A DNA stretch of 64,000 bases from an uncultured bacterium (GTDB lineage Bacteria > Patescibacteriota > Minisyncoccia > Phycocordibacterales > Phycocordibacteraceae). A program made the position numbers and the translations under genes. The stretch spans positions 137,239 to 201,238 of the forward strand of contig CAMTYL010000003.1 of NCBI GenBank assembly GCA_947085985.1, read 5' to 3'. A model generated the notes under the pieces. The model was not told the DNA's origin and did no database searches. It saw nothing but the letters and a program-made list of their open reading frames with translations. Positions 11,463-39,030 of this stretch are shown one piece after another. Each line of letters opens with the position of its first letter. The first letter of the stretch is position 1.

Positions 11463-11481
11463 GACGACATCCTCCATGACA

Positions 11482-13727: not shown

Positions 13728-13790
13728 TATCTATAGTATAGCTGAGCTTGGGCGGGAAATGAAAAGACCCCTGACGGGGTTTTTCAGTTG

Positions 13791-22109: not shown

Positions 22110-22190
22110 TTAAAGGGTTTCGTCCGCGAGGAACGAACCAGCCTGGATGCTCCAGAGTTTGTGGTAGAGGCCGCCCTCTTGTTTCAGTAA
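22110..22190 (-). pseudogene. Orphan 3' fragment (about 26 codons) of an MsbA-like ABC exporter gene; repeat copy a
   Basis: It encodes ...GLLKQEGGLYHKLWSIQAGSFLADETL*, matching the C-terminus of the intact ABC gene (…DDLLKQEGGLYHKLWSIQAGSFIKDSEE*). About 50 of 57 nt are identical by eye to 37259-37315. Confidence 0.6.
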
Positions 22191-22194
22191 GCCT

Positions 22195-22223
22195 TTGACA
22201 AACACTAAATAAGTCTGTATTTT
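22195..22223 (+). promoter_or_regulatory. Promoter-like element upstream of trpS2
   Basis: TTGACA, 17 nt, TATTTT. AAGGAG lies 6 nt before the ATG at 22257. The element sits immediately after repeat copy a. Confidence 0.35.
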
Positions 22224-22256
22224 GCACTCAGACACCAATTCTTTAAGGAGAGCATT

Positions 22257-23255
22257 ATGCTCGAACAAACGGTTCTGTCGGGCATTCGGGCAACCGGGCG
22301 CCTTCACTTCGGAAACTACATTGGCGCGGTGCTCCAGTTTCAGAGACTGCAGCGTGTGAACAATCTGTCGATGTACTTCATCGCGGACTGGCATACACTC
22401 ACCACGCTTCGGAATCCAGATGAACTGCGCGGGAATGTGATCGAGATTGTGAAGGACTATCTGGCCGCTGGCCTTAACCCTGAGCTCTCGACCATCTACG
22501 CTCAGTCAAGTGTGCCCGAAATCGCTGAGCTGTCGCTGTACCTTTCAATGTTTCAGCCACTCGGTGAGCTCGAGCGCGTCCCAACGTTCAAGGATCTGGT
22601 TCGCAAGAACCCCGACAACGTTACGTTGGGACTGGTTACCTATCCAGTTCTGATGGCGGCCGACATCTTGGGCGTGCAAGCTACACTTGTCCCTGTCGGC
22701 GAGGATCAGATACCAAATGTAGAGCTTGCTCGGAATTTGGCTCAACGTTTCAATCATCAGTTCGGAGAGACGTTCACCTTGCCCGAAATGCTGAGTGAAA
22801 TGGTCAAGGTGCCTGGTCTCGATGGCGACAAGATGGGAAAATCGGACGCCAACAACGCGGTCGACATAAACTCCCCTATTAGCGAAATACGAGAGCGGTA
22901 TCTGAAGCGAGGAGCCAGCGACCCTGCGCGAAAACTGCGGACCGATCCCGGGAATCCGTACACCAAATGCCCGGCCATCTATCCGTTGCACGAGATCGTT
23001 ACTGATGGTGAGACGCAGACACGAGAAATCGCGAAACTCTGCCAAACTGCCGGCATCGGTTGTCAAGACTGCAAGAATCGGTTAGTGGACAGTATCGCTA
23101 CGGTCCTTGAGCCATTTCAGGAACGTCGTCGTGAGTTGACCGATAAAGACGACTACGCCAAGGAAGTCCTGCACGAGGGAGGGAAAAAAGCTAGGGCGCG
23201 AGTTGCCGAAACTCTTGCTCTCGTGCGCGATAAAGTTGGCATCATCATCTACTAG
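22257..23255 (+). CDS. Second tryptophanyl-tRNA synthetase paralog
   Basis: GIRATGRLHFGNYIGAV (HIGH-type) and KMGKS; 332 aa. It has clearly higher GC and lower identity to the first trpS. It lies in the accessory block. Confidence 0.8.
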   Translation: MLEQTVLSGIRATGRLHFGNYIGAVLQFQRLQRVNNLSMYFIADWHTLTTLRNPDELRGNVIEIVKDYLAAGLNPELSTIYAQSSVPEIAELSLYLSMFQPLGELERVPTFKDLVRKNPDNVTLGLVTYPVLMAADILGVQATLVPVGEDQIPNVELARNLAQRFNHQFGETFTLPEMLSEMVKVPGLDGDKMGKSDANNAVDINSPISEIRERYLKRGASDPARKLRTDPGNPYTKCPAIYPLHEIVTDGETQTREIAKLCQTAGIGCQDCKNRLVDSIATVLEPFQERRRELTDKDDYAKEVLHEGGKKARARVAETLALVRDKVGIIIY

Positions 23256-23311
23256 ATGCTGGAATCAAATTGGGGCCCGGTCATCTTGACCGGGCCCCTC
23301 TTGCTGATTGT

Positions 23312-24271
23312 CTACGCGCTCAGCTCACTTATTGCTCTTAGTGAGTCACGTTGCTCCGTGGGGAGTACGTTGCCAAGCACGTTGTTAAGAAGTGTAATTA
23401 CCCCTTGTGGAGGTTCAAGTGGATCGATGCACAGTACATATCCTTTTGGGCACCGGGCGATTTGTATCGATTTGGCCCGTTCGGAACCAAAAGCCCAGGT
23501 GACCATTTCGCGAAAGTTTTTTTCCACAAACCAGTGTGAGAGGAAGAAACCGTCACGGTTTGGATCTTGTCCTACAACCCTGATTGCACCAGTGCTATCA
23601 CTCGCGAGACAGGTGCCGAGAACCTTCTGAACCGTCTCCTGCCACAGCGGAGAAGGATGTGTGTGGAGAACAGCTCCAACACCAAGGTCGCGATACGTTC
23701 CAGCATTTAGGCTAACGGCGTCAAAGTTGAACTGCGACCCCAGCACCTTTCCATTCTTGAGATACTCATCGATACCGCTACCGTTGTGTCCATCCTCCTC
23801 GTATCGGCTTATAAGTGCTTGCGCACGGTATACGCCAATAATGACCCGGCGTGGTGCCTTAGGAATAAGCGAGACAGCTTGGAGGATCGATCCAGAAATC
23901 ACGTCGACTTCCACCCCTTGTTTCTGATAGTGGCTGAGCGAGAATTCCTTCGCGTACTGTGTCATAACCTTCGAGAGATCATTGAAGATCACGCGCTCAA
24001 CCGAGCGCCCCTCTGCGTGTAGAACATCAGTAACTACGCGTGGATCACGACAACCGTTAGCGCCACCAAGCGTGATAACGTCCCGAGCGACATAACCAGA
24101 GGCTGCGTAATTCTTGCAGAACTCTGTGACGGCATTGAGTTCGCCCTGATTGTCCTTTGTCATTGGCGCCTTCTGATATCCGGGCGCTTGTCTGTCCCAA
24201 AATACTACCTGACCCTCTGTGGTAAGGGTAGGAATAGGGAGCCAGCCTGAGTCGTTTTGGTTCTGCGTCAT
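23312..24271 (-). CDS. Hypothetical protein, possibly a Rossmann-fold SAM-dependent methyltransferase
   Basis: VITLGGANGCRD (motif I-like) followed by ERVIFNDLS (acidic post-I). Weak; 319 aa. Confidence 0.3.
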   Translation of the reverse strand: MTQNQNDSGWLPIPTLTTEGQVVFWDRQAPGYQKAPMTKDNQGELNAVTEFCKNYAASGYVARDVITLGGANGCRDPRVVTDVLHAEGRSVERVIFNDLSKVMTQYAKEFSLSHYQKQGVEVDVISGSILQAVSLIPKAPRRVIIGVYRAQALISRYEEDGHNGSGIDEYLKNGKVLGSQFNFDAVSLNAGTYRDLGVGAVLHTHPSPLWQETVQKVLGTCLASDSTGAIRVVGQDPNRDGFFLSHWFVEKNFREMVTWAFGSERAKSIQIARCPKGYVLCIDPLEPPQGVITLLNNVLGNVLPTEQRDSLRAISELSA

Positions 24272-24385
24272 CGAATGTATCCCTTTAATTACCGAGCTCG
24301 AATGAGCTGTTCTGCAGGGATCATACCTGTATTATACATTCCCGCAAGGTAAGTTGTCCCGCTAAGAAGTGAGCACACTAAGCTC

Positions 24386-25390
24386 CTATACTCTGCGCTC
24401 TATTACTGGAAGCGAGAGAAACATTGCTTCCTCGAGCAGGCTAGTCTTGCTCACTGGGTTAGTCATCATAATCGGGTGTGTATCGAATGGCGCAAGAATA
24501 GGATCGAGGCCAATACTGCTGATACCGAGCGGCGTGCCTTTCCTGACAAGTTGGAAATCTCTAACTTCTTCTGGGTCCGGGATTTTATACGACATATCTG
24601 GAAAAAGAATAGATCCTTCTATGAAGTACTCTTTGTACGTTCTTTCGGTTCTATTGGGAGCTCCTGCAATCATGCCCAAGTTTTGGAGCACCACAGTAGC
24701 CGTATCGATGGCGCACTTGAAAGACTCAGGTCTTTTATGAGAACCTGCTTCGATAGCAAAAACATCCGCGTCCTTGTCTGGTGAACCGTAAAAGGCGAAT
24801 GCTGGCTTTCCAACCTGCGCATTCTCAATATTGAGCAGTATGGTTTCGATGGGAATTCCGTGCAGAAGTTCGTCAGGCAATCCATCGCTGCGAGAGATAA
24901 TCATCGGAGACATTTCAGTAAGCGTGCTGTGCACATCTAGGGCGTGCGTAAACTCCTCCCACACTGACTGAAGTTCCTTGGCTCTACGGACCTCGCTTCG
25001 GGTATCGTCGCTAAGAGAGAGAACATTGGGCGGCAGTCTGTTCATGTTTACATCGACAAACCTTGCAAGTCGTTCTTCTGTTTCAGATTGAGCGCCCATA
25101 TACCTATCAGTCGCATCTATGTTGTTTAGAACCAAAAAAAGCTTTCCTTTTAAAAGTTGACTACCCTCGCTCAATCTATCAAAAAGGTTGTGGATTACAG
25201 CTAGGCCGCTTGGTTCATTTCCGTGCGTACAGGCAGTAATACCCAAGACAGGGCCAGAAACTCCACTCTCAATGCAGTAGACTCCTGGCACATTACGATA
25301 GTAAGAGCTTCTTATGCGCGTGAAAGTTTCAAGAAGCTCCCCATGAGATGGAACCTCATCAATAGTAGCTATCATAAGATTTAAGTACAC
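24386..25390 (-). CDS. Succinylglutamate desuccinylase / aspartoacylase (AstE/AspA) family zinc deacylase
   Basis: GITACTHGNEPSG (the family's H-G-N-E zinc-binding signature); 334 aa. Confidence 0.55.
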   Translation of the reverse strand: MYLNLMIATIDEVPSHGELLETFTRIRSSYYRNVPGVYCIESGVSGPVLGITACTHGNEPSGLAVIHNLFDRLSEGSQLLKGKLFLVLNNIDATDRYMGAQSETEERLARFVDVNMNRLPPNVLSLSDDTRSEVRRAKELQSVWEEFTHALDVHSTLTEMSPMIISRSDGLPDELLHGIPIETILLNIENAQVGKPAFAFYGSPDKDADVFAIEAGSHKRPESFKCAIDTATVVLQNLGMIAGAPNRTERTYKEYFIEGSILFPDMSYKIPDPEEVRDFQLVRKGTPLGISSIGLDPILAPFDTHPIMMTNPVSKTSLLEEAMFLSLPVIERRV

Positions 25391-25458
25391 TATACCTTAG
25401 AAAAATTTGGAATTAAAAGCGGGGGCTTGTGGCCCCCGCTCTCAAACAACAACTGTCC

Positions 25459-26166
25459 TCAGAATTTTCCAACAAAGAGGAAACCGTCGTTTGATTGACC
25501 ATCCTTGATATTGAGCTGATGCTCAAACCAGGAGGAAATGGCAGTGTCGGCGCACGAGGGTATTCTCTCGTACAAACACTGCCTGTACAGACCTTTACTC
25601 ACTCCAGTCACTGGATCGAATACTCCTTCCCTTTCGCTCATAAGCCTCGCGGCCTGACCACGAAGTTGCTCTGGAATACCCTCGAGTGGATTAGGCCAAA
25701 GTGACGAGGAAAAGCTTTTTGCGAGGCAGTACATCACCGGATTCTGGGTGGTGAAGGCTACTGTGTCCAGGGAACTTCTCTCACGAAGTGCTCCGACTAG
25801 GCGTGCGGCGGCCCGTTGCCCTTTGACTTTTGGCGACAAGGCTATTCCGTGAAGGTACATATAGCCCTCTCTCGGAAATAGACCAGACGCAAAGCCCAGA
25901 GCTTCTTCGTCAGTATGAAGGATCGCCAGAGCTGAGGCTCCGCTCAGATGCTGTTTCGTTCCGTCCCCAGAATCTTCATTCAAAGGGGTCCCGAAACTAT
26001 CAGCAGTGAGCTGTGTCAGATGGCTGATGAGTAGCTGTACACAGCTTTCATTCTCGTCGAGAGATACCGGGCTGTCCGTGGTGCCAAGAATGGATACTTG
26101 GAGCCCGGCGCTTTGCCCACACCGCTCGGCGTCTTGTAGCTTAAGGAAGTCCGCGAGGTAGGTCAT
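25459..26166 (-). CDS. Putative GNAT-like acyltransferase
   Basis: YMYLHGIALSPKVKGQRAAARLVGAL resembles the GNAT motif A acetyl-CoA loop. Weak. Confidence 0.35.
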   Translation of the reverse strand: MTYLADFLKLQDAERCGQSAGLQVSILGTTDSPVSLDENESCVQLLISHLTQLTADSFGTPLNEDSGDGTKQHLSGASALAILHTDEEALGFASGLFPREGYMYLHGIALSPKVKGQRAAARLVGALRERSSLDTVAFTTQNPVMYCLAKSFSSSLWPNPLEGIPEQLRGQAARLMSEREGVFDPVTGVSKGLYRQCLYERIPSCADTAISSWFEHQLNIKDGQSNDGFLFVGKF

Positions 26167-26298
26167 GCAAGGCCCCTTTCGTGGCTGTGCTGGTTCAGTC
26201 TGGAACAAGAGTACCAGGTACCCCAATCCTGTCAAACGTATACACAAAGCAGCGCCGCTTAGGAATAGCTTCCCAAGCGGCGCAATCTCCTCGTGTTC

Positions 26299-26736
26299 TT
26301 AGTAGATCATCCCGGTTATTTCAGCGATGCATTCAACCGTTCGCCAAGGCTTGTCGCAATCTGTTTCCTCGAGCAGTCCAGCAAATTTTCCTCTCTTAAG
26401 CCAAACTGTCTTCGCGCCGCACTGATTACCAAAGCGGATTTCCTCGTGCAGATAGTCGCCGATAACATACACAGAGTTGTGTCCCTCTCCTGTGCGCTCA
26501 ACTAACTCCGCGAACATCTCTCTAGTCTTCTCCTCTACAAACGAAACAGAGGAAAAGAAGCTCAAGATACCGTGGGATTCAAGGATGTGTTCACGACCCG
26601 GTTCCTTGCGAGAGACAAGGTGCATTTCAGCACCGGACCCTCTTAGCCAGGTGAGCATCTCTAGGACGCCGGGAAGGAGACTGTTTGTGTCGGGGTCGTA
26701 CAAGGTACGGTTAAGATCAAATATCACACAAGTCAT
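26299..26736 (-). CDS. HAD-superfamily hydrolase
   Basis: N-terminal DxN nucleophile motif (CVIFDLNRTL) and C-terminal VIGDxxxxD motif (VYVIGDYLHEEI). Confidence 0.55.
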   Translation of the reverse strand: MTCVIFDLNRTLYDPDTNSLLPGVLEMLTWLRGSGAEMHLVSRKEPGREHILESHGILSFFSSVSFVEEKTREMFAELVERTGEGHNSVYVIGDYLHEEIRFGNQCGAKTVWLKRGKFAGLLEETDCDKPWRTVECIAEITGMIY

Positions 26737-26809
26737 TCTTCTCGCCCTTTTGTTGCTCTCGTCTAAGCCTACGATATCTGTGCTCTTACGCAACTAGGTA
26801 GATAAGATT

Positions 26810-26849
26810 CGTCGGTAAGGAACGAACCAGCCTGGATGCTCCAAAACCT
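26810..26849. repeat. Repeat copy b: ABC-exporter 3'-end-derived direct repeat
   Basis: tcgtcggtaaggaacgaaccagcctggatgctccaaaac. Read on the minus strand it gives WSIQAGSFLTDE, the ABC C-terminal motif. It is in the same orientation as copies a, c and d. Confidence 0.6.
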
Positions 26850-26867
26850 ATAGCTTTTCTTACATAT

Positions 26868-26896
26868 TTGACAAAAATTGGAGCTACAGTATCATA
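26868..26896 (+). promoter_or_regulatory. Promoter-like element after repeat b, upstream of the GCS2 gene
   Basis: TTGACA, 16-17 nt, TATCAT. Followed by a GC hairpin (agccccctc-tcatgt-gagggggct at about 26995-27025) and AAGGAG 7 nt before the ATG at 27071. Confidence 0.3.
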
Positions 26897-27070
26897 TTTA
26901 TATGTACGCGTATTTCGGCCAGCATCATCACATCAATGCACTCTCGTTGAGAGAGGATTGCTTTGATGTTGCGTAGGCTTAGATACCCGCTCCCCCACCA
27001 AAGTAGCCCCCTCTCATGTGAGGGGGCTTTTGCGTTGCAAAAGTACGGTTCTTTAACAAGGAGCACGCAC

Positions 27071-27961
27071 ATGCGTGAAGAACTTCGTTCGTACTTCACT
27101 GATGGACTGCGTCGTCGCGCAGGACATACGGTTGGAGTTGAAGCGGAAACGTCATTTCTCGATGGCGATTCTCAACTTCCCATTTCGCTTGCCACGTCTC
27201 AGAACATGTTCTCTGAGCTTGCGCAACGTAACTGGCATATCGAAAGTACTCGCGGGGGATTGATTACTAGCCTGCGAAGTGAGCGTGGAGATATGCTCAA
27301 CTACGAGCTCGGCAGACAGAATCTTGAGATATCGGCGGCGCCTGGCATTGATGGAGCGTCGGGAATCATGAGTGCGCAAGTGGCGCTCTCTGAACTGTAT
27401 GAGGTAGCACGGCTCTTTGGTGCCGCCCCCTCGTTCTCTCCCATGCTTAGTACTAAAGAGGACTTGCTGGTGATTCCTGACGAGCGTGATGCTATTTGGC
27501 TTCAACTTGATGGGCGTGAGGCTCTTATGCCTCTCGCCACAATCTCTTCGGTCCAGTTCACTGTTGAGGTTTCGCTTGAAAACGCCATTCCTGCTATCAA
27601 CCGCTTGAATGAGGTGTTGCCGGATTTCCTCCGCGAGTATCCTCAAGAGAAGGTGTGGCGAGAGTACATAGCGCAATCGAAAGCTGGGTACGAGGAATCG
27701 CGCTACGGCGGCCCCCGTTACTTCAAGTCGCTTGATGACTACATTGAGCAGCTTGGAAAGTACAGGGTCGTCGCAGGCGCCTGTCTTACTCGGCAAGTTC
27801 CGATTGAGAATGTCTCTCTCTTCATTCGTTCAGTCTGGTGGTACTTCCGACTTCGCCGGTACGGCGACCGCATGTGCATCGAGGTGCGCCCGATTGCTCG
27901 GGTGCATGATGCTGATATCGCGGATAAGCTCGAAATGGTGTTGAACATCATTCACTCGTGA
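27071..27961 (+). CDS. Carboxylate-amine ligase, glutamate-cysteine ligase family 2 (GCS2/YbdK-like)
   Basis: N-terminal GHTVGVEAETSFLD resembles the GCS2 TVGVEEE motif. About 300 aa, the typical size. Paired with a GGCT gene. Confidence 0.45.
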   Translation: MREELRSYFTDGLRRRAGHTVGVEAETSFLDGDSQLPISLATSQNMFSELAQRNWHIESTRGGLITSLRSERGDMLNYELGRQNLEISAAPGIDGASGIMSAQVALSELYEVARLFGAAPSFSPMLSTKEDLLVIPDERDAIWLQLDGREALMPLATISSVQFTVEVSLENAIPAINRLNEVLPDFLREYPQEKVWREYIAQSKAGYEESRYGGPRYFKSLDDYIEQLGKYRVVAGACLTRQVPIENVSLFIRSVWWYFRLRRYGDRMCIEVRPIARVHDADIADKLEMVLNIIHS

Positions 27962-28048
27962 TACCTGAGGGGAGTGCGCTCCCCTCTTTCATCGAGCATT
28001 TCAGGTTCACTGAAATGTTCGACAAAAGATTACTAAGTATCAAAGTGT

Positions 28049-28528
28049 ATGAACAAAAGTGTACTAGTGTTTGGGTACGGTTCCCTCATGAATCCTAGAA
28101 GCCTAGCGCTGACCTTGCCAGGAAAACGCACAGTGACCCCCGCAGTTCTGCAGGGTTACCGACGAGTGTGCAACGTCCCAGTAAATGGTTACGCCTATCT
28201 TAATCTTGAGGCATGTGAAGGGTTTAGTGTAGAGGGTGTGCTTGTTCAGGTGTGGCAAGACGAACTGCCTGCACTGTTTAAGCGCGAGGAGGGATACGAG
28301 TTTGTAAATGTAACTTCTGCGATAGAAGGCATTGTGAGCAAGACGTTTGCCTTTATTGCAAAGTCCGGATGTAGAGAAGATCTCGCTGTCCCAAGAAGTT
28401 ACCTACAAACATGCTTTGCCAAAATGGAGCCCACAAAAAACGAACAGACTTTCCTGGAATTAAGAATGCCCGGAGGAGTATATGAAGACCTAGATAATCC
28501 CGTTTATCAGAACTATGTTCTGGACTAA
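28049..28528 (+). CDS. Gamma-glutamyl cyclotransferase (GGCT/AIG2-like)
   Basis: VLVFGYGSLMNP is the YGSL signature with a catalytic Glu further on; 159 aa. Confidence 0.65.
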   Translation: MNKSVLVFGYGSLMNPRSLALTLPGKRTVTPAVLQGYRRVCNVPVNGYAYLNLEACEGFSVEGVLVQVWQDELPALFKREEGYEFVNVTSAIEGIVSKTFAFIAKSGCREDLAVPRSYLQTCFAKMEPTKNEQTFLELRMPGGVYEDLDNPVYQNYVLD

Positions 28529-28530
28529 AC

Positions 28531-28568: not shown

Positions 28569-28821
28569 AAAGTTGTTAAGGTTTTGCGCGAGTTTGATAA
28601 ATTAGAGAGTCGCAGTATGAAATAAGTATGTTCGCGTAGTTTGCAAGTGCTCGGTACCGTTTACCTTAAGGCGCCAAGATAGAACCACTCCCCTCCTGCC
28701 TTGACGTAAGTCTTGGGGAATAGAATGACCCCCTCTCTATAGTGTAAGAGTATGTACTGCAGTAACCGCAAGCGTCCCCGCACGTAGTTAGTGCCCCTCA
28801 GATAGTGCTATCCTGTGATAT

Positions 28822-29685
28822 ATGAAAAAGCGTCTTTCAATCAATTTGCTTACTTCCAGAGTCTTTTGGGAAAGTATGCCACTGATCATCGCCGAAATAG
28901 CGGAAAGAGAGCATTATCTTTCCATATTCGACGACAGACATATGCCTACCCTTGAGGGTTTGTTCGATTGTGATGTTCTCATCGACATGAGTGCAATTAC
29001 TGATGTGGAGTTCTACGAGAAATTGAAGACTGAATCTCTACGGAGAAAGATGGCTGGACAGAAAATTCCTCTCATGGTCGACAGTCCTGAGGCAGTAATG
29101 AATTCCATGGATAAAAGAAAAACACATGCGCTTATGCCGGATCTGGTTCCAGAATCCTATGACTTAGATGGTGTTAATAACGAGAGTATGATTGCCAAAT
29201 TCTTTGATGACGAATACCTTCTTATAAAAGACCCCTTCGGATGGCAAGCGAGGGGAATAGACCGACTATCACCAAAAGCAGCACTCGAAAAGTACCGAGT
29301 CTCAAAGGGGCTAATCGCTCAAAAATATATTCCATTCACGGACGGTGTAGGAAGAGTCCTTACCTTGAATCATGCTTCTGATTTTGAGATCATGTGCGCC
29401 TATTTACGAATACCGGACTCGTGGAGAACTGGTGAAGGTACTGAATCTCAATACAAATTGGTAGAAATTGACGAAAAACTCCGAGACTTTGCGAAAACTG
29501 CCGCAATACGGTCTGGGCTTTATTTAAACGGTATCGATTACATTTACAAAGATGGACAGTATGTTCTTTTAGAAGTGAACGCCGCGGCAGGACTCCGCGA
29601 TCCTTATGATGAGTTCAAAATAGATACTCCAAAGATTTTTCTTGATCACATCGAAAGAAACTCCAGAGTCGCTCTTGGTGATTAG
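28822..29685 (+). CDS. ATP-grasp ligase (RimK-like small amino-acid ligase)
   Basis: C-terminal ...YVLLEVNAAAGL (E-x-N catalytic loop) and a central nucleotide-binding region; 287 aa. Low-GC gene. Confidence 0.6.
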   Translation: MKKRLSINLLTSRVFWESMPLIIAEIAEREHYLSIFDDRHMPTLEGLFDCDVLIDMSAITDVEFYEKLKTESLRRKMAGQKIPLMVDSPEAVMNSMDKRKTHALMPDLVPESYDLDGVNNESMIAKFFDDEYLLIKDPFGWQARGIDRLSPKAALEKYRVSKGLIAQKYIPFTDGVGRVLTLNHASDFEIMCAYLRIPDSWRTGEGTESQYKLVEIDEKLRDFAKTAAIRSGLYLNGIDYIYKDGQYVLLEVNAAAGLRDPYDEFKIDTPKIFLDHIERNSRVALGD

Positions 29686-30497: not shown

Positions 30498-31873
30498 ACG
30501 GAAGTTAGTGCGTGATTTCGTACACTGGCAATTAGTTCTCCGGCCCAGGGTTCAATTTCATACTTTTCTCTTGCGATAATCGTCTTCTTCAGAATAATTC
30601 TTGCTACAATTCCTCCTGGGGGTAGTTCGCGACCAGTGTGCGCACTGTAGGTTACTAATATTTCTCCGTCCTTCAAGTCTTTAACTCGAAGCAAGAAATT
30701 TACTTTTCTGAACGCATCGTTTTCTAGATGGTAGATTCCAGGCTCTAGGTATCCAGCAACAGTAACTGTGGAATGCGAATTATTATAGACGATGACTTGC
30801 GCATAATCATGTTCAGACAAGTCTATCTCTCCGTTAAGAAACTCCAGTCCATCTACATAATCTAGCACAGAAAATTCTTCGAGATGCTTTATTATGTCGG
30901 GGAGCAGACCTTGGTCTTTCTGCATACCAGTCAGCAAGCGCGTTAGACCCACAAGTCTGGTATTTAATTCTTGAACATATACGATGTTAGTTTCTTTGTC
31001 CCAGAGAAAGTCAACCCCGAGTATGCCCCTGTAACCCTTGCCTCTCGCGTGCTCCGCTATTTTCTCGCACATACTCCGCACGGTTTTCACGAGTGAGGCA
31101 CTGAACAAGCTCTGGTTGGTGTCATTTCCTGCAAACTTGAAAGGCATTGATGTCAGCTCAGGAAATCCTACTAGTTGTAAAAAAGGACCCCGAATTAGTG
31201 TTTTTTCTTCAAGCACGGTTAGATGAACAGAAATTGGTATGTTATTTCTCAAATACTTTGTTGCCTTAAATACACCCCGCAGGCCCTGTGCCTTTTCAAA
31301 AATATCTTCGATTGAACCAACTAAGAATGTGTCTTCACCAGAAACACCCAAGGAGCCTTGCAGGATGAAGGGCACCCCCAAGCCCTCTTTACATTCTTCA
31401 AATGCCATTTCGAGATCTGTCGACACGTCTTTGAAGACCAGGGAGGAGTTACATGGCAAAGCCAGTTCTTGGCAAATAGAGGGCAGATTCAGTTTATCGC
31501 CAAGAACTTCTTGGAGCCGATATGGTGCAAGCGACATTTGAATCTCCGCTGTGTGGAGAAGCTCGTCGATATTGTGGTTCATAAAGAAAAAAAGCACCGT
31601 AGAATTGACTCTATCGGGAAGCGCACGGGACAGAAATTCCTGATCAGCAAGCATAATCTCAACGGCTTTGTCACTATCGATGTCCTTTGCCAAGTCCTTA
31701 TTAAGGTACGAGTCAATATTCCATGCTTGCCTCAAGTGCCGGTATAAAGAATCGTCATCATAGGTGACTATCTTAAAATTCTGCAGCAAGTCCAAAAGTT
31801 CTACCGACATAAATGGAGTTTTCTCAAAAAAGATAACTTGGCAATCTGGCGAACTGGACCCCTCCGTGTTCAT
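30494..31873 (-). CDS. Large ATP-grasp domain protein
   Basis: GILGVDFLWDKETNIVYVQELNTRL (ATP-grasp E-x-N Mg-binding loop); 459 aa with N-terminal pre-ATP-grasp region. Confidence 0.5.
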   Translation of the reverse strand: MNTEGSSSPDCQVIFFEKTPFMSVELLDLLQNFKIVTYDDDSLYRHLRQAWNIDSYLNKDLAKDIDSDKAVEIMLADQEFLSRALPDRVNSTVLFFFMNHNIDELLHTAEIQMSLAPYRLQEVLGDKLNLPSICQELALPCNSSLVFKDVSTDLEMAFEECKEGLGVPFILQGSLGVSGEDTFLVGSIEDIFEKAQGLRGVFKATKYLRNNIPISVHLTVLEEKTLIRGPFLQLVGFPELTSMPFKFAGNDTNQSLFSASLVKTVRSMCEKIAEHARGKGYRGILGVDFLWDKETNIVYVQELNTRLVGLTRLLTGMQKDQGLLPDIIKHLEEFSVLDYVDGLEFLNGEIDLSEHDYAQVIVYNNSHSTVTVAGYLEPGIYHLENDAFRKVNFLLRVKDLKDGEILVTYSAHTGRELPPGGIVARIILKKTIIAREKYEIEPWAGELIASVRNHALTSV

Positions 31874-33330
31874 GGACGTGGGCGCATAAGTGGAAAAATC
31901 TGGGCTTCACGAATGCTTTTTCCAGCAAGGAAGCTGAATAAACGCTCGGAAACACCGAAACCAAACGTTGGTGGCATACCATACTCCATGGCTTCGACAT
32001 ACTCAAAGTCAGCCATCTGCGCTTCTTCGTCCCCAGCATCTCGCAGTGTTTGCTGGTCCTCAAATCGCTTGCGCTGGTCAGCGGGATCGTTTAATTCGTT
32101 GAATGCTTTTCCGAGTTCGCTACCCCCAATCAAAATTTGAAAGCGGTCAACGACACGAGAGTCGCCCATGGACTTTTTTGCTAAAGGTTCAAGGTACACA
32201 GGCATGCCGGTCATTATCGCTGGGCCACCGATAGTCTTACGAATCTTCTTCCATAAAAGGTCTATACCACGACCTGTATCAATGTTTGACTCATAAGGAA
32301 TACCATGTTCTTGCAAAAGAGAAACTACATTTTCGAGCTCAACGTCCCTCGGATCGATTCTGTACTCTTTCTGCATAAGCTCGTTAAAATCATACCTTTT
32401 CCATTCGGAGTTCAGATCAACATCGAAATCATTAATCTGGAAACGGGACGTACCAAACGTGGACTCCGCGACAGTTCGGTAAAGCTCGATAAGCATTGGT
32501 ACACCTGCGCGTGCATCCTGATACGCTTCGTAAAACTCGAACGAAGTATAGTCATTGGCGTGCTCGTACGACATGCCTTCATTTCTAAATATGCGGCCTA
32601 TTTCAAAGGTCTTTGGAAGTCCACCAATCATCAGCTTCTTTTGCCATAACTCTCCTACTGATATGCGAAGGAAAACATCAATGTCTAATGAGTTGTGATG
32701 GGTAACAAACGGCCGCGCCTCAGCTCCACCGGTCATGGTTTCAAGAACTGGGGTCTCGACTTCAATAAAATCCCTCTCAAGCATAAAGGTTCTGACTGCA
32801 TTCCAAAAGACCGAGCGCTTCTTAATAAGTTCAGTCACATCGGAATCTAGCAGCATGTCGATGTAACGTTTTCGGTAGCGTTCATCCTCATCCTTTAGCC
32901 CAAACCATTCGTCCGGAATAGGCCTTAAACTTTTTGCAAGCATGCGCCACTCGGCTACCATGAGAGAATTCACCCCACGTTTCGTAGTGAAAGCAGTTCC
33001 AGAGACTTCAATAAAATCACCATTGTCTACAACATCCATAAAAAGACCCGTACTCTCATTACCGAGCGCATCCTTTTTAATAAGCACTTGAACACGCCCA
33101 CTGCCGTCAAATATGTCAAGAAAGATAATTCCTCCTTGATTTCTGAGGGCCATAATTCGACCAGCAATTGTTACGTGCTCTTCGGAAGAAACGAGCAAGC
33201 TGAAGGACTCCAAAAATTTAGCATTATCATGCGTACGTTTTGACTCGGCCGGATACGGGTCAATTCCTTGCTGCCTAAGCAAGTCGAGTTTCTTGAACCG
33301 TTCGGCCCGGACATCGTCTAGAAAAGCCAT
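31870..33330 (-). CDS. lysS: Lysyl-tRNA synthetase, class II
   Basis: OB anticodon-binding N-terminus. Motif 2 (FEIGRIFRNEG), motif 3 (EYGMPPTFGFGVSERL); 486 aa. Low-GC (about 40%) gene. Confidence 0.85.
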   Translation of the reverse strand: MAFLDDVRAERFKKLDLLRQQGIDPYPAESKRTHDNAKFLESFSLLVSSEEHVTIAGRIMALRNQGGIIFLDIFDGSGRVQVLIKKDALGNESTGLFMDVVDNGDFIEVSGTAFTTKRGVNSLMVAEWRMLAKSLRPIPDEWFGLKDEDERYRKRYIDMLLDSDVTELIKKRSVFWNAVRTFMLERDFIEVETPVLETMTGGAEARPFVTHHNSLDIDVFLRISVGELWQKKLMIGGLPKTFEIGRIFRNEGMSYEHANDYTSFEFYEAYQDARAGVPMLIELYRTVAESTFGTSRFQINDFDVDLNSEWKRYDFNELMQKEYRIDPRDVELENVVSLLQEHGIPYESNIDTGRGIDLLWKKIRKTIGGPAIMTGMPVYLEPLAKKSMGDSRVVDRFQILIGGSELGKAFNELNDPADQRKRFEDQQTLRDAGDEEAQMADFEYVEAMEYGMPPTFGFGVSERLFSFLAGKSIREAQIFPLMRPRP

Positions 33331-33450
33331 ATACTAGTATTGTTTATTATACCAGAAACTGAATGTTTATCTAATTTAACCTGCTCGTCTTGTAGGCCTA
33401 GACATCGAGTCGTGTATCATTACTCGTGAATACTTTTTACTCAATCCCCT

Positions 33451-34698
33451 ATGAATACTAAAAGAATACCTTTTTCGCTCGACCAAATCCAGGCACTCGC
33501 GCGCGAGCACGCAACACCATTTTATGTATACGATGAAGCTGGAATTAGAAGTTCCGTCCGAACGCTGTTTAAGCTCTTTTCGTGGAATGCGGGCTTTAGA
33601 GAGTATTTTCCGATAAAGGCAACGCCAAACCCTGCGATTCTGAAGATTCTGGCAGAGGAGGGTTGTGCCGCTGATTGCTGCTCAGTGCCGGAGCTCCTGA
33701 TTGCCGAACAAGTCGGACTAATAGGAGAGTCAGTCATACTTACATCAAACTTTACCGGGCCAGAAGAGTTCAAGAAAGCTAGAGAAATGGAAGCGATAAT
33801 AAACCTTGATGATCCAAATCACCTGCCCTATCTCGACGACTTGGCGGGTCTGCCAGAGGTATTGTGCCTCCGATACAATCCCGGACCGTTTGGCCAAGGC
33901 GGCTCAGAGACATGGGCACATCTGACTGAAGACAAATTCGGTATGAAAAAAGATCAGTTGTTTGAAACGTATATTCGTGCGAGAGAGAATGGAATCCGTC
34001 GATTCGGACTGCACATGATGATCATGTCCAACGATCTTGATGGCGAGCATTTAGTAGAGACTGCCCGAATTTGTTTCGAGACTGCTGTGGAATTGCGACG
34101 AATCTTCGGAATCAATCTTGATTTTATTGACTTGGGAGGCGGTGTCGGGATACCGTATCGACCCGACCAGGAAGCAATCGATATGGCGACCGTCGTTGAG
34201 AGAATTCGTACCATGTATGAAGAACACCTATATAGTGGAAATTTAGAACCTTTGCGACTTTTCACGGAATTTGGTCGATTTGTGGTCGGACAGCATGGCT
34301 ATCTTGTCGCCACTGTTAGGCACATAAAAGAAAGTTATAAACATTTTGCTGGATTAAACGCGACCATGGCAGACCTTATGCGACCTGGAATGTACGGCTC
34401 GTATCACCACATCAGCATTCTAAATAAATTGGGAGAGAAATCAGAAGTAATGTATGACGTGGTGGGTTCGTTGTGCGAAAATAACGATAAATTTGCGATT
34501 GATCGTCAACTCCCACGGCTTGATCCGGGTGATGTGGTAGTTATTCACGACGCTGGGGCGTACGGTCGCGGAAAAGGCTTTAATTTCAATGGAAAATTAC
34601 GTCCAGCTGAATTTTTATTTGAGAAAGACGGTGTATCCTTCAAAAAAATCCGCCGAGCTGAGACGTCCGAAGACTATTTGTCGACTCTTCGAGTGTGA
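33451..34698 (+). CDS. PLP-dependent fold-III decarboxylase (Orn/DAP/Arg decarboxylase family; LysA- or carboxynorspermidine-decarboxylase-like)
   Basis: FYVYDEAGIR...PIKATPNPAILKILAEEGCAADCCSVPEL (PLP-Lys region), GGGVGIPY, EFGRFVVG; 415 aa. Confidence 0.7.
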   Translation: MNTKRIPFSLDQIQALAREHATPFYVYDEAGIRSSVRTLFKLFSWNAGFREYFPIKATPNPAILKILAEEGCAADCCSVPELLIAEQVGLIGESVILTSNFTGPEEFKKAREMEAIINLDDPNHLPYLDDLAGLPEVLCLRYNPGPFGQGGSETWAHLTEDKFGMKKDQLFETYIRARENGIRRFGLHMMIMSNDLDGEHLVETARICFETAVELRRIFGINLDFIDLGGGVGIPYRPDQEAIDMATVVERIRTMYEEHLYSGNLEPLRLFTEFGRFVVGQHGYLVATVRHIKESYKHFAGLNATMADLMRPGMYGSYHHISILNKLGEKSEVMYDVVGSLCENNDKFAIDRQLPRLDPGDVVVIHDAGAYGRGKGFNFNGKLRPAEFLFEKDGVSFKKIRRAETSEDYLSTLRV

Positions 34699-34890
34699 CT
34701 ACAGGCTATATAATTGTCTGACTTAATAGCGCGGTTAAGATAAGAAATTAGTCTCTAGGGATGATTTCAAAGTCCGAGATTTTGAAATATGTTACGTTTT
34801 GAAAATCTCAAAAACTATACAAAAAATGCTAGTAGTCGGGTTCGTAAGTTAACATACTTGCATATACTCTCAATAATGATGGCAGATGAA

Positions 34891-36039
34891 CTAAAAAAAT
34901 CTTGCTAGCTTAAATCCGTCTATGTCGATAGTGCTGATACCATCAATTACGAGTTCAGCAAGTATCTCACCGACTGCTGCAGAGTGCTTGAAGCCATGAC
35001 CGGAACATGGAGATGCAAGAATTACTGAAGGGTGTTCCGGGTGTTGATCGATCACAAAGTCATGATCAGGTGTGAGAGTGTAGAGACATGGAACCGCCCT
35101 TACGCAGCGACTGCTCAATCCTCTAATGTTTGGAGCTATGAAAGTGTCATAGGCGGATTGTTTCTCTTCCTCACTGACATCTCGACTAGTCTCGTCAACA
35201 GACGAGACTAGTTCGTCATCCGCACACGCTATTTTTAGCCCGCCGTGCGGACCGTCCAAGGCCGGGAATCCATTCAAGTGCCAGATAAAGATTGGGAATT
35301 TGTCAGGAAGAAAACTTTCTACCGGTCCGTCAATATCAAACCAGTACATCACCTGACGGTGTACAGTAAAAAGCTTTTGATATTTCTCCTCGAGAAGTCG
35401 CGAGAGCCAAGGGCCAGCGCTGATTATAAGCCTATCAGCAGTGTACTCTCCCAAATTCGTCTTTACTGTTACTCCGTCACGGCCTTCTGAAAAACTCACC
35501 ACTCTCTCATTCATGTTTATTTGAGCGGCATATTTTGCAGCAAGAGAAAGTTGAGCAGTCAGACATTCTTCAGCACGGAGAAACCCAGCATTAGGCTCAT
35601 AATAACCAATATCGCCGTCTCGTATAATAAATTGTGGAAATCGTTCTCGAAGCTCCATTGTGTCTAGTATTTCATGGTCAATCTGATATTTCTTCGCCGC
35701 CGCTACTGTTGCACTGAAGAAATTATTTACTGCGTCCTTCTCCTGCTTACCTATGTTTGAAATAATAATTCCACCCGTAATTGACAATATTTTTTTTCCA
35801 GTCTCCTTCTCTATCTCTTCCCACAACTTATAAGAACGAAGCGACAGTGGAGTATAGTGCTCACCTTCCCCGATTGCTTGACGTGTGATGCGAGTGTCTC
35901 CGTGTGATGATCCGTAGGCGTGTGGGGTCGAAAATTGCTCGATGCCCAATACTCTATTACCTTTCTTTGCTAATTGATACAAAGCTGCGGACCCAGTAGC
36001 TCCTAGACCTACGACAATGGTATTAAACTTAGTAGTCAT
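34891..36039 (-). CDS. FAD-dependent amine oxidase of the monomeric sarcosine oxidase / N-methyltryptophan oxidase (MSOX/MTOX) family
   Basis: VVGLGATGSAALYQL (GxGxxG). HGYGSSHGDTRITRQA (MSOX signature). C-terminal CSGHGFKHS (covalent-FAD Cys region). Confidence 0.65.
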   Translation of the reverse strand: MTTKFNTIVVGLGATGSAALYQLAKKGNRVLGIEQFSTPHAYGSSHGDTRITRQAIGEGEHYTPLSLRSYKLWEEIEKETGKKILSITGGIIISNIGKQEKDAVNNFFSATVAAAKKYQIDHEILDTMELRERFPQFIIRDGDIGYYEPNAGFLRAEECLTAQLSLAAKYAAQINMNERVVSFSEGRDGVTVKTNLGEYTADRLIISAGPWLSRLLEEKYQKLFTVHRQVMYWFDIDGPVESFLPDKFPIFIWHLNGFPALDGPHGGLKIACADDELVSSVDETSRDVSEEEKQSAYDTFIAPNIRGLSSRCVRAVPCLYTLTPDHDFVIDQHPEHPSVILASPCSGHGFKHSAAVGEILAELVIDGISTIDIDGFKLARFF

Positions 36040-36052
36040 ACATGAAGCAGCG

Positions 36053-37099
36053 TCAGGCGAGTGGGTCAGGATACATGCTGTGAACATCGTCAATTTCGGC
36101 AAGTACTTCTGGGGAAAGTACTAAGTCAGTAGCCGCAATATTTGCACGCAAATGTAAACTGCTGGTTGCTCCAACAATCGTACTTGTAACGAATGGGCGT
36201 GAGAGGACAAAAGCAATTGCCATGGTTGCCGGATCGAGATCGTGCTTTTTGGCAATCTGCACGTAGCGTAATACAGCTGCCTGGGCGGCTACAGGATTAT
36301 ACCTATCGCGATTGCGAGCAAAGAGTGAGAAGCGGGCTCCGGGTGGAAGTGCGCCGTCCAAATATTTACCTGTCAGAACACCCATAGAAAGGGGCGCGTA
36401 AGCGAGGAGACCTATTTTCTCCCGTGCTGCAAATTCGCCCAATCCTATTTCAAATGTTCTATTTATAAGCGAGTATTGATTCTGGATCGTTGATATGTGC
36501 GCGAGACCTTTCTCACGTGATGCCCGAAGATACTCTGAAACACCCCACGGAGTTTCGTTGGATATTCCAATGAGTCGTGTTTTCCCCTCTCTTATTAATT
36601 CAGTAAGCGCATCAAGCGTCTCTTCAATTGAAGTCGATACATCTTCGGGATTGTGTGCATATCCACGAGCCCCAAAAAAGTTAGCTTCACGCTCTGGCCA
36701 GTGAATTTGGTAGAGGTCAAGATAATCAGTGCCAAGACGGAGAAGCGTTCCGTTTATCGCTTCGCGTATGCTTGTACGATCCAAATGCGATTGCCCGTCA
36801 GCTGAAGGCGCGCGCGTACGCATAATTGATGAGGGAGCTACCTTACTTGCAAGAACAAGAGTGTCGCGTCGCCCATGCCGCTTAAGCCAAGAACCAATGT
36901 ATTCTTCAGTCAATCCCTGTTTCTTGTGCTCTGGCGGAACAGGGTATATTTCTGCAGTATCTATAAAATTAACTCCTTTGGAAATAGCATAGTCAAGTTG
37001 TTCGTGTGCTTCGTTCTCTGTATTCTGCTGACCCCAATTCATTGAGCCGAGACAAATAGCCGATACACGCACGTCGCTATTAGGAATCATCTTGTACAT
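36053..37099 (-). CDS. Aldo/keto reductase (AKR superfamily, Tas-like)
   Basis: ICLGSMNWGQQNTENEAHEQLDYAISKGVNFIDTAEIYP with catalytic D/Y/K/H context; about 349 aa. Confidence 0.7.
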   Translation of the reverse strand: MYKMIPNSDVRVSAICLGSMNWGQQNTENEAHEQLDYAISKGVNFIDTAEIYPVPPEHKKQGLTEEYIGSWLKRHGRRDTLVLASKVAPSSIMRTRAPSADGQSHLDRTSIREAINGTLLRLGTDYLDLYQIHWPEREANFFGARGYAHNPEDVSTSIEETLDALTELIREGKTRLIGISNETPWGVSEYLRASREKGLAHISTIQNQYSLINRTFEIGLGEFAAREKIGLLAYAPLSMGVLTGKYLDGALPPGARFSLFARNRDRYNPVAAQAAVLRYVQIAKKHDLDPATMAIAFVLSRPFVTSTIVGATSSLHLRANIAATDLVLSPEVLAEIDDVHSMYPDPLA

Positions 37100-37236
37100 C
37101 ATAGACAAGCGAATAGTACAATGAAAAAGAAACACATTCTAGCCAATCGACACGCCCGTAGCGACGTCTTGTGTCTTAATGATTGGAGGAAGTCCGTACG
37201 CACCTTCTATAGTTTGCAGGAGTTCTGGGTCCATGG

Positions 37237-39030
37237 CTATTCTTCTGAATCCTTTATAAACGAACCAGCCTGAATGCTCCAGAGTTTGTGGTAAAGGCCG
37301 CCTTCCTGCTTCAAGAGGTCGTCGTGGGTGCCGTCCGCAGCAATCTTTCCGTCTTCAATCACAATGATGCGGTCCATCTTCATGATGGTTGAGAGTCGGT
37401 GCGCAATTACGATAACCGTCTTCCCTTCCATAAGCGTCTTCAGCGCGTCTTGAATGAGCGACTCGCTCTCGGAGTCTAGTGCTGAGGTGGCTTCGTCCAG
37501 CACTAGGATAGGCGCGTTCTTTAGAATGGCACGTGCGATAGCAACGCGCTGGCGCTCACCACCAGAGAGTTTTACGCCGCGCTCACCCACGTGGGTGTCG
37601 TACCCTTCTGCAAGCTTAGAAATAAACTCGTGGCAGTGAGCCTTCTTTGCCGCTTCCATAATCTCCTCGTCTGTCGCGTCCGGCTTGCCGTACGCGATGT
37701 TTTCTTTCAGCGAACGGTGGAATAGTGTGGACTCCTGCGGAACAAAGGCAATGGCACGGCGTAGGCTTTGCTGTGTGACTGTCTTGATATCGGTACCATC
37801 AATAGTGATGCTGCCGCTGGTGACGTCGTGAAGGCGAAGCAAAAGCTTAGTGATAGTAGTCTTACCTGCTCCTGAGGGACCTACAAGCGCAACACGTTGC
37901 CCTGGCTGTATGGCAAGGTTGAAGTCACTGAGAACCTCACTTTTGTCTGCAAAAGCAAAGCCAACATTGTTAAAGGAAATGGTGCCCCTAGAGACAGAAA
38001 GCTCTGACGCCCCCTGGATATCCTGAATTGCATGCGGCTCCTCCATAACTTCAATCATCTCGTGGGCTTCAGAAAGTGCGTCAAATAATTGGCGCAGATT
38101 CCCGCTGACGCTTCCTATTTGGTCTATAAGGGATATGGCATATATTTGAATCAAGACAAGAGATCCTACAGTGATACTCCCCTGCCACCAGAGGTAAAAT
38201 CCTACTAAGAGAAGTGCTACCTGTGCAAAGCGGGTAAGAAAACCTTGAATGCCATATACGAGAACATCAGAATTCCAAGAGCGAGTGGTGGCTTGATACC
38301 AGTCGTACACCACGCTTGCGAAGTGTTTTGACTCGCCTACTTCTGCCGCAAACAGTGTGACTGCAGAATGATTCCCTACTGTATCTGAGAGCACACCAGT
38401 TAGACGACTGTCCTGTGCTGCGCGCGCAAGTTTATACTTGTAGCGCCATACGGTTAGAAAGTACATCAAGAGTACAAATAATATGGTCCACGTCAGCAGC
38501 CCAACTCCCAGATAGATGTTTTGAGTAAAGAGCACCACAATGACTCCAGTAGTAAACAGGAAGGTTGGAACCATGCCCTCCATGACACTATTGAAGATTT
38601 GTTGGTATGCGTGAGAGTATCTGCTTACACGACGCGTCAAAGTACCGGCGAAGTTATTTATGAAGAAATCATGACCGTGTCCAATGAGATAGCTAAATCC
38701 GCGAGTGAAAAGGTCGCGCGCAACACGGGCCTCTAGCTGCGTGACAGTCCACATTTGAATACGGACGCCAATCCAGTTCCCGGTCACTGCTAATGTGTAG
38801 AGGCCAAGCGCAAGAAGCATTACATGCAAATACTGCTGATCAACGCCGATGGTCGTCACCAGGTCAATAAAGTGTTTGAGAAAAAGCGGAGCAGCGATGC
38901 TGGTGCCAACGGTAGTAGCAATGCCAAGAAGTACACCAAGAAAGAACCACGGATACTTTGCCGTAGCGCGAGCATAATCTTTCAGCACTGACCACGCGTG
39001 GCCAGTCTTTTTGCCCTTAGCCTTCTTCAT
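37237..39030 (-). CDS. MsbA-like ABC exporter (fused permease and ATPase)
   Basis: 6-TM N-terminal domain. Walker A (GPSGAGKTT), LSGGERQRVAIARA, Walker B ILVLDEATSALD; 597 aa. Its last about 20 codons form repeat copy d (37259-37315). Confidence 0.85.
   Translation of the reverse strand: MKKAKGKKTGHAWSVLKDYARATAKYPWFFLGVLLGIATTVGTSIAAPLFLKHFIDLVTTIGVDQQYLHVMLLALGLYTLAVTGNWIGVRIQMWTVTQLEARVARDLFTRGFSYLIGHGHDFFINNFAGTLTRRVSRYSHAYQQIFNSVMEGMVPTFLFTTGVIVVLFTQNIYLGVGLLTWTILFVLLMYFLTVWRYKYKLARAAQDSRLTGVLSDTVGNHSAVTLFAAEVGESKHFASVVYDWYQATTRSWNSDVLVYGIQGFLTRFAQVALLLVGFYLWWQGSITVGSLVLIQIYAISLIDQIGSVSGNLRQLFDALSEAHEMIEVMEEPHAIQDIQGASELSVSRGTISFNNVGFAFADKSEVLSDFNLAIQPGQRVALVGPSGAGKTTITKLLLRLHDVTSGSITIDGTDIKTVTQQSLRRAIAFVPQESTLFHRSLKENIAYGKPDATDEEIMEAAKKAHCHEFISKLAEGYDTHVGERGVKLSGGERQRVAIARAILKNAPILVLDEATSALDSESESLIQDALKTLMEGKTVIVIAHRLSTIMKMDRIIVIEDGKIAADGTHDDLLKQEGGLYHKLWSIQAGSFIKDSEE

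Follow-up and report, generated by a model that had tools for sequence, protein, structure and literature searches.

We analysed a 64-kb stretch of DNA from an uncultured bacterium of the Patescibacteriota (contig CAMTYL010000003.1, positions 137,239 to 201,238; hereafter the window), and in particular a 15-kb island that lies between a gene for an ATP-binding cassette (ABC) exporter and a fusion gene for AdoMet decarboxylase and spermidine synthase (speHE; 20846..21940, minus strand), the latter forming the conserved flank on the far side. The ABC gene (37237..39030, minus strand) is intact and encodes a protein of 597 aa with the Pfam domains ABC_membrane and ABC_tran; its last 27 codons (37237-37317, minus strand) read ..LLKQEGGLYHKLWSIQAGSFIKDSEE* and close with the tail ..SFIKDSEE*. 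Stranded copies of this gene end, here called orphans, recur three times. Orphan a (22110-22190, minus strand) adjoins the speHE-side flank and comprises the 26 terminal codons and stop of an ABC allele (LLKQEGGLYHKLWSIQAGSFLADETL*). Orphan b (26808-26852, minus strand) has 13-15 codons (YRFWSIQAGSFLTDE) and has lost its original stop, and orphan c (28525-28575, minus strand) has 15 codons plus a stop (LLSIQAGSFLTDEEV*) that overlaps the stop of a convergent GGACT gene. The three orphans and the live end share one orientation, with the coding sense on the minus strand. A preliminary description of this DNA had reported that the ABC 3' end recurs as four direct repeats, and all four lie where it placed them.

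The repeat is far in excess of chance. With at most three mismatches allowed, a 20-nt core (GAACCAGCCTGGATGCTCCA) gave four matches in the window against 0.01 expected from shuffles, and none of 100 shuffles reached four matches. The orphans measure 38, 38 and 78 nt in the window and at least 102 nt in L008, a related genome (relatives were viewed as loci with 10-kb flanks and are denoted by L numbers); approximately 20 nt are common to every copy, and orphans b and c are 92% identical over 38 nt. No second copy was found outside this locus, and among 80 species-level relatives screened for a second copy only L008 has an orphan. The repeat is thus found only here and is not a generic dispersed repeat, a possibility that the preliminary description had itself raised. 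The closest database genomes are uncultured Patescibacteria, members of the candidate phyla radiation (CPR), labelled Paceibacterota, Parcubacteria or 'Saccharibacteria'. All island junctions were 100% identical among contigs assembled independently from six sequencing runs, indicating that the arrangement is not an assembly artefact.

The differences among the copies bear on the origin of the orphans. Orphan a differs from the live end of the window by seven synonymous and no non-synonymous substitutions over 19 codons; the L008 orphan differs from the L008 live end by six synonymous and none non-synonymous, and the same counts separate orphan a from the L008 orphan. Roughly one quarter of random substitutions are synonymous, and a gene copy decaying in place acquires mostly non-synonymous changes. 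The synonymous-only differences therefore indicate that the two well-preserved orphans, a and that of L008, diverged as working gene ends, as alleles of different lineages. Judged by this substitution pattern, both are former live ends of diverged alleles and not locally made, decaying copies. The tails of the copies add to this. As previously described, orphans a, b and c share an extension that the live end lacks; it encodes the tail ..FL(A/T)DE.., which is the live gene end in L008 and L007, and therefore represents an allelic tail type and not new sequence. The live tail of the window, SFIKDSEE*, matches the type found in L087, L089 and L179 (SFIxDExE*). Orphan a is orthologous to the L008 orphan, with a flank that is 92% identical from window position 22189 down.

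Related genomes contain both empty and differently occupied versions of the site, the two states for which the preliminary description had suggested a search. The empty site is that of L090, where speHE follows 73 nt after the ABC stop; the ABC gene of L090 is 75% identical to that of the window, and the DNA upstream of it 91-99% identical. Neither island nor orphan is present in L180-L183 (15 contigs; ABC protein approximately 73% identical), where the order is dnaK-dnaJ-orf167-ABC-(one gene)-AdoMetDC..histidine kinase..tyrS. In L008 (ABC 94% identical) a single unrelated cassette of 2.6 kb (11800-14346) lies between the live end and a 102-nt orphan, and no outward promoter is found beside that orphan. 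The cassette encodes a NUDIX hydrolase, a nucleoside deoxyribosyltransferase-like protein, a ThyA-like (thymidylate-synthase-like) protein and Tmk (thymidylate kinase), a nucleotide-modification or salvage set more typical of phage cargo. Other fillings are ABC-APH in L179 and ABC-APH-methyltransferase-NUDIX-DXPS..trpS2 in L089; in L087/L171 and L172 the genes of segment C of the window (see below) come after GNAT-AstE-like, the whole preceded by the ABC gene in L087/L171; and in L007 the ABC gene is followed by genes for a membrane protein, a SET-domain protein and a histidine kinase. Exact-protein look-ups within the same population revealed no strain with fewer cassettes, every contig having the full arrangement, and in a scan of metagenomes the speHE protein matched only distant relatives (at most 65% identity), none of which had an ABC gene nearby. 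The empty site of L090, the single cassette of L008 and the tail types together bear out one half of the earlier proposal, that DNA entered at the 3' end of the ABC gene, rebuilding that end and stranding the old one; the site-specific mode of entry that formed the other half was not supported, for reasons given below.

The orphans sit 4-22 nt upstream of -35-like hexamers, and the preliminary description had placed a TTGACA-type promoter-like element after each repeat. This applies well to a and b. The site near a (22195..22223, plus strand; TTGACA-17-TATTTT, 10 of 12 positions matching) reads into trpS2, and the site near b (26868..26895, plus strand; TTGACA-16-TATCAT, 11 of 12 positions) precedes the GCS2-like gene; these are the two best sigma-70-type matches between 21.5 and 39.5 kb, the total number of matches in that interval being no greater than expected by chance. 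It applies less well to c, where the site is weaker and opens with TTGATA (28594-28621; TTGATA-16-TATGAA). The sequence near c (28594..28645, plus strand, ..ATGTTCGCGTAGTTT) corresponds to a truncated copy of the GCS2-like promoter with approximately 15 nt of leader. The right flanks of b and c align without gaps at equal offsets from the 38-nt core, a score reached by 5 of 500 shuffles, with shared blocks at offsets 22-30 (TTTGAcAAA), 42-49 (CAGTATnA) and approximately 57-70 (ATGTwCGCGTAkTT), and the collinearity of c with b breaks off after approximately 110 nt. In L178 the same promoter and leader of approximately 170 nt stand directly upstream of the GCS2-like gene with no ABC orphan before them, which identifies the flank of b as the native promoter of that gene. 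Orphan c together with its flank looks like a truncated duplicate of b and the GCS2-like promoter, cut approximately 15 nt into the leader. Since the flank of c copies that of b, the two orphans are not independent scars. We also considered whether the b and c flanks might be further decayed ABC codons and rejected this; beyond the W codon, similarity to the ABC gene is at chance level.

The leader has features of its own. Between promoter b and the GCS2-like start at approximately 27071 (window 26900-27070, plus strand; L178 4918-5088), it is approximately 97% identical in the window and L178, as compared with only 74% for the coding region. Its fold is strong (minimum free energy -63.9 kcal/mol, z -4.4), with a terminator-like hairpin (27005-27028) and then a run of U at its end. 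Neither the 20-40 kb interval nor the leader itself gave a credible match in Rfam. The GCS2-like gene family is widespread in the CPR, and the leader, a candidate cis-regulatory RNA, could be an undescribed riboswitch or attenuator.

The positions of the orphans relative to promoters raise the question of whether the repeat might be a selected cis-element, such as an activator or operator site, an insulator or a terminator, whose likeness to the ABC gene is coincidental. Proximity to the -35-like hexamers, the better conservation of the 38-nt core than of its surroundings and a weak hairpin within the core would all fit such a role. However, the orphans keep the ABC reading frame and tail, and in a and c the stop, and they vary only at synonymous sites; the native GCS2-like promoter of L178 does without such an element, no outward promoter adjoins the L008 orphan, and the repeat matches no Rfam family. 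We consider a cis-element highly improbable.

The ABC gene is not the only one to have left pieces of itself in the island. Immediately after the cut in the promoter copy of c comes the stranded 3' terminus of a gene that is AstE/AspA-like and of the L087/L172 type (28667..28738, minus strand; 24 codons plus stop, REGVILFPKTYVKAGGEWFYLGALR*; blastx E 3e-8), its DNA being 80-83% identical to L171 and L172 over 42-62 nt. A second, decayed AstE-like 3' remnant probably lies between the stop of orphan a and speHE (about 22020..22099, minus strand; ..GAIIFPKTCAVPGG..); three homologues match it with blastx E values of 0.004-0.007. L008 has this remnant too (approximately 14500-14600), which points to an older ABC-GNAT-AstE-speHE arrangement in the common ancestor. 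At the other end of the island, just after the ABC stop, a short open reading frame (ORF) represents a 5' remnant of an APH-family kinase gene (about 37160..37234, minus strand; approximately 25 codons), joined to the sequence upstream of the AKR gene. An APH gene follows the ABC gene in L089 and L179; the remnant (MDPELLQTIEGAYGLPPII.. as compared with MDLDLLQQVETVYGLSEIV..) has the same position relative to the ABC stop as in those genomes. Taken with the live tail of L089/L179 type, the APH remnant indicates that the new gene end arrived together with donor downstream DNA. The joint between APH and AKR-upstream sequence can be placed within approximately 10 nt, and microhomology there is ambiguous with diverged stand-ins for the parents. 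We rejected a circular permutation of segment C (a circle containing the AstE-like fragment, reopened between that fragment and the AKR gene), as approximately 220 nt of donor-type AstE-AKR spacer would need to have been lost.

The ABC gene itself is a mosaic. When the window gene (37237-39030) was compared with that of L090 (10001-11770), identity was 94-99% through orf167 and the first approximately 150 nt of the ABC gene, fell to 54-67% over approximately 1 kb of the membrane domain, and was 80-92% in the last 500 nt, which encode the ATPase end. This profile indicates that recombination between genomes that are close elsewhere has exchanged the part of the exporter that faces the substrate. 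Where diverged ABC alleles match exactly over long runs, the runs are concentrated in the final approximately 250 nt, and in 11 of 33 diverged ABC pairs an identical run of at least 17 nt covers the repeat core. Crossovers between diverged relatives are therefore expected in this 3' block. The motif WSIQAG is kept even at 50% protein identity, and the repeat core is the most conserved coding stretch of the family.

The repeats divide the island into three segments. Segment A (22191..26807) contains trpS2 on the plus strand and, on the minus strand, genes for an unknown protein of 319 aa and for AstE-like, GNAT and HAD proteins. Segment B (26853..28524) consists of the gene for the GCS2-like ligase (true start at approximately 27071) and the GGACT-like gene, with their own promoter and the leader of approximately 170 nt; the same gene pair also adjoins speHE in L178. 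Segment C (28576..37236) carries on the plus strand genes for a RimK-like ATP-grasp protein and a DAP-decarboxylase-like protein, and on the minus strand genes for an unknown protein of 271 aa, a 459-aa ATP-grasp-like protein, LysRS, an amine oxidase and an AKR. The G+C content is 0.525 and 0.532 in the flanks and 0.505, 0.496 and 0.445 in A, B and C; the segments thus differ in composition as previously described, if modestly. To the right of the ABC gene are orf167, dnaJ, dnaK, grpE and ribosomal genes, and ABC orthologues adjoin dnaK-dnaJ-orf167 in all relatives. To the left of orphan a are the speHE fusion, a gene for a 209-aa protein, a SET-domain gene, a histidine kinase gene and tyrS. 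Over 14.4 kb, the window and the ERR4904395 contig differ solely by an in-frame indel of 6 nt in the gene for the histidine kinase (18191-18196). Beside tyrS lies a free-standing ORF resembling a LAGLIDADG homing endonuclease (13848-14648, minus strand), as is also the case in L180 (12428-13207), and an ORF for a PD-(D/E)XK Cas4-like nuclease is found at 57125-57910.

Parts of the island are closer to other genomes than the backbone is. A sub-block of segment C (28760-34696, 5.9 kb) is 88-91% identical to L171 and L172, as compared with 71-78% for backbone genes; the DAO-AKR part of C has 77% identity to L171/L172, and the ends of the sub-block do not coincide with repeats. The trpS2 protein (22257-23255, plus strand) is 85.5% identical to the trpS2 product of L089 and 33% identical to the housekeeping TrpRS (8423-9376, minus strand). 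In L089 (coordinates listed for that locus: 2195-2515, 11151-12149) trpS2 lies in an island that also holds a Trp-repressor-like gene, and segment C of the window encodes an enzyme resembling N-methyl-tryptophan oxidase; trpS2 and the oxidase-like enzyme may point to a theme of tryptophan-analogue resistance or metabolism beside the exporter. The class II synthetase of segment C (31870-33330, minus strand) is LysRS, scoring above the NCBIfam equivalog cut-off. Because lysS lies directly downstream of the ABC gene in six distant relatives (L010, L011, L014, L015, L017 and L023), part of C represents old synteny and is not simply imported cargo. The gene for the 271-aa protein belongs to a conserved lysS operon in orphan-free genomes. 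The other class II synthetase of the window (6618-8060) is AspRS, and the island lysS may be the only lysS of the genome. For the 319-aa and 271-aa ORFs, searches by PDB sequence, PHROGs, Pfam and NCBIfam returned nothing, and single-sequence AlphaFold models were unusable (predicted local distance difference test scores of 38 and 33.5, respectively).

The segments and the b/c pair permit evaluation of a local origin for the whole array, by which slippage or unequal crossing-over would have produced tandem duplications that then decayed, with no imported DNA. The modules of b and c do resemble duplicates of a unit of approximately 1.73 kb (orphan, promoter, GCS2-like gene and GGACT gene), and direct repeats favour unequal crossing-over. 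Such a process covers the b/c pair at most, however. The differences between orphans and live end are all synonymous and the tails are of different allelic types, the three segments have unrelated genes and different G+C, and segment C and trpS2 are closer to other genomes than the backbone is. Local duplication as the source of the array is accordingly very unlikely.

We looked for recombinases and mobile elements that might have assembled the island. No recombinase domain of any kind was found among window ORFs of at least 150 aa searched for Pfam domains, which upholds the earlier statement that the window has no integrase. The preliminary description had also suggested looking for a recombinase beside the same ABC 3' end in relatives; none was present in the loci searched (L007, L008 including its cassette, L087/L171, L089, L090, L172 and L179-L183, by Pfam and precomputed annotations). 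The repeat core had no match in viral contigs, and the 15-kb island none in phage and plasmid collections by megablast. No intI integrase was present, the gene neighbouring the array being the ABC exporter, and the repeats, remnants of the ABC C-terminus that are still in frame and have only a 5-bp dyad, do not correspond to attC-type sites.

These results bear directly on the possibility of a site-specific accretion array, composed of decayed elements of the cis-mobilizable element (CIME) type whose attP mimics the ABC 3' end, with an integrase encoded elsewhere acting in trans. Much about the locus agrees with it. The topology is exact: direct repeats of the gene end flank the blocks on the same strand, the target gene is rebuilt and intact, and the newest block is nearest the gene. 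Empty and differently filled sites exist among relatives, the identical boundaries of b and c and the clustering of joints near the gene end would be explained more directly, and the block of approximately 20 nt in all copies has short dyads (CCAGCCTGG; CTGGA-TGC-TCCAG). Arrays with members that lack an integration module are known (PMC5704250, PMC3146451). On the other hand, no recombinase is found in the window or in the relatives' loci, only one of the 80 species-level relatives has an orphan, and the repeats range in length between 38 nt and at least 102 nt. No other coding stretch of the family is as well conserved as the shared block, so an att function is not needed to account for it. 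A site specific to the ABC gene also leaves the AstE-like and APH scars and the truncated promoter copy unexplained, and breakpoints are found inside the ABC gene and inside C. We therefore rate an array of this type as unlikely. The narrower proposal of the preliminary description, three cassettes laid down by three successive site-specific integrations, is not supported: besides the missing recombinase and the unequal repeat lengths, c duplicates b, other genes (AstE, APH) have left scars, breakpoints lie inside ABC and C, and lysS belongs to old synteny.

We consider it probable, though far from assured, that the interval between the ABC gene and speHE is a hypervariable island of one small Patescibacteria clade, which has been rebuilt repeatedly by general recombination with DNA of related genomes and without a dedicated integrase. 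The stranded ends look like scars of ordinary recombination and not like the footprint of a new mobile-element system. The best reading of the joints is that homologous crossovers took place in the conserved ABC 3' block and were combined with illegitimate joins. In support of this, the insertion abuts a conserved anchor that shows mosaicism of donor and recipient sequence, and at the new joints resident genes are cut short or a part of the anchor is duplicated (ABC, AstE-like, APH and promoter). Incoming DNA would bring a diverged ABC allele, or approximately its last 25 codons, along with the downstream genes of the donor. One homologous crossover would fall within the ABC gene, in many cases within the final approximately 250 nt, which are extremely conserved, and the other join would be illegitimate or would use very short homology; a one-anchor event with linear DNA and a single crossover of a circularised fragment would give the same product. 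That product would be a complete gene with the donor tail, the donor cargo, and a stranded piece of the resident end. Competent bacteria are known to recombine DNA at one anchor with an illegitimate distal join, and in experiments with E. coli a recircularised fragment that integrated by a single crossover left 109-950 bp of the homologous end in duplicate (PMC3240628). Saccharibacteria are naturally competent and integrate DNA homologously (PMC10633639), and we assume that the present lineage may likewise be competent. We infer entry of the DNA by natural transformation, as well as the donors, the sequence in which the events occurred and the division of joins into homologous and illegitimate ones.

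Once an orphan is in place, it and the live gene would constitute two homology arms, and crossovers in the 38-nt core could stack, swap, duplicate or delete blocks. Recombination of a donor orphan with the live end of a recipient would insert the donor block and leave a core that looks 'fresh', and the new orphan would have the proximal flank of the donor and the tail of the recipient. A crossover of this kind would explain why the proximal boundary and the decaying promoter remnant are the same in orphans b and c while the tails differ, as well as why the core is better conserved than the flank.

Several observations weigh against rebuilding by general recombination. All orphans (a, b, c and that of L008) fall within the last 38 to approximately 110 nt of a 1.8-kb gene, a clustering tighter than would be expected of random illegitimate joins, which should scatter more widely; we infer that it arises from the conserved 3' block and from the re-use of orphans as arms. 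Orphans b and c share both boundaries, as a fixed att site would give, and the 38-nt core is far better conserved than its flanks, which could reflect a recognition site as well as a hybrid origin or gene conversion. A recombinase may be encoded outside the 64-kb window and the 10-kb flanks, and the 319-aa and 271-aa island ORFs, which have no recognisable fold or family, could conceal a novel one, although the 271-aa gene also occurs in orphan-free genomes, within the conserved lysS operon. Note also that any microhomology at the illegitimate joins can be sought only in diverged stand-ins for the parent sequences, and that the evidence for competence concerns Saccharibacteria and not this lineage (PMC10633639).

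A further, more speculative extension of general recombination is that blocks are stacked without an integrase as a regular process, the ultra-conserved end (approximately 40-80 nt) of a housekeeping-like ABC exporter gene acting, once stranded, as a portable homology arm that travels with its neighbouring genes. We put this forward tentatively and think it unlikely as matters stand. A relative that takes up 'ABC ... cargo ... orphan' would, through ordinary RecA crossovers, place the cargo at the end of its own ABC gene, and repeated rounds would build an ordered, integron-like array in which no recombinase took part. If true, this would offer a general route of accessory-gene gain in competent CPR bacteria that are poor in mobile elements.

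The genomes of CPR/Patescibacteria are tiny and contain few recognisable mobile elements, and, to our knowledge, very little is known of the ways in which these bacteria acquire and reshuffle accessory genes. The present locus provides a worked example with clear polarity, from empty site through single cassette to stacked mosaic. The synonymous-only differences of the orphans serve in it as a clue akin to a molecular clock, new DNA coming from diverged relatives with a gene end of its own. If the site proves integrase-free in further genomes, it would exemplify an island that grows through recombination at the conserved end of a gene; should an integrase be found, it would be one more ordinary accretion array at a target gene.

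The closest natural parallels are arrays formed by integrative and conjugative elements (ICEs), integrative and mobilizable elements (IMEs) and CIMEs that accrete in tandem at the 3' end of a target gene, as with ICESt1-type elements at fda of Streptococcus thermophilus (PMC5704250). The island resembles these in its gene-end direct repeats, in the rebuilding of the gene by incoming DNA, in its tandem blocks without an integrase (some members of the known arrays also lack one), and in the empty and differently filled sites of relatives. It differs in that no integrase was found in the window or the relatives' loci, repeat length is not fixed and scars of other genes lie inside; the blocks are also small (1.7-8.7 kb) and without transfer or maintenance genes, and one holds lysS in its old synteny. 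The ssrA islands of Dehalococcoides are likewise tandem islands downstream of a single-copy gene with short gene-end direct repeats; there, too, the genome is small and the region highly plastic, and an integration module is missing from some of the islands. However, 16 of those islands have a conserved integration module with the serine recombinase DsiB, a fixed 20-bp repeat and a constant insertion point (PMC3146451), whereas here no DsiB-type module, fixed repeat length or constant insertion point is evident, and the target is protein-coding. Integron arrays share with the island an ordered set of small gene blocks, a recurring short sequence and a fixed anchor with the newest block nearest to it, but the island has no intI, its recurring sequence is a coding remnant and not a folded attC, and its blocks contain several genes with their own promoters on both strands.

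Homology-facilitated illegitimate recombination (HFIR) and the insertion of recircularised fragments (PMC3240628) have in common with the island one homologous anchor combined with a non-homologous join, no dedicated recombinase, foreign DNA beside the anchor, and duplication of the anchor end or truncation of resident genes. They differ in being low-frequency laboratory events, whereas the island is a natural locus with several stacked events. As a structure, the locus is of a known kind, an array of the accretion type at a target gene's 3' end, in which neither the recombinase that characterises ICE/IME/CIME arrays nor any of the diagnostic features of integrons was found. A new recombinase-free site-specific mechanism is not established by these data. 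We know of no description of a natural locus with stacked events in which orphans are re-used as homology arms, and it is only this possible re-use and the CPR setting that are unusual. In mechanism, the island appears most to resemble the products of homology-anchored recombination obtained in the laboratory.

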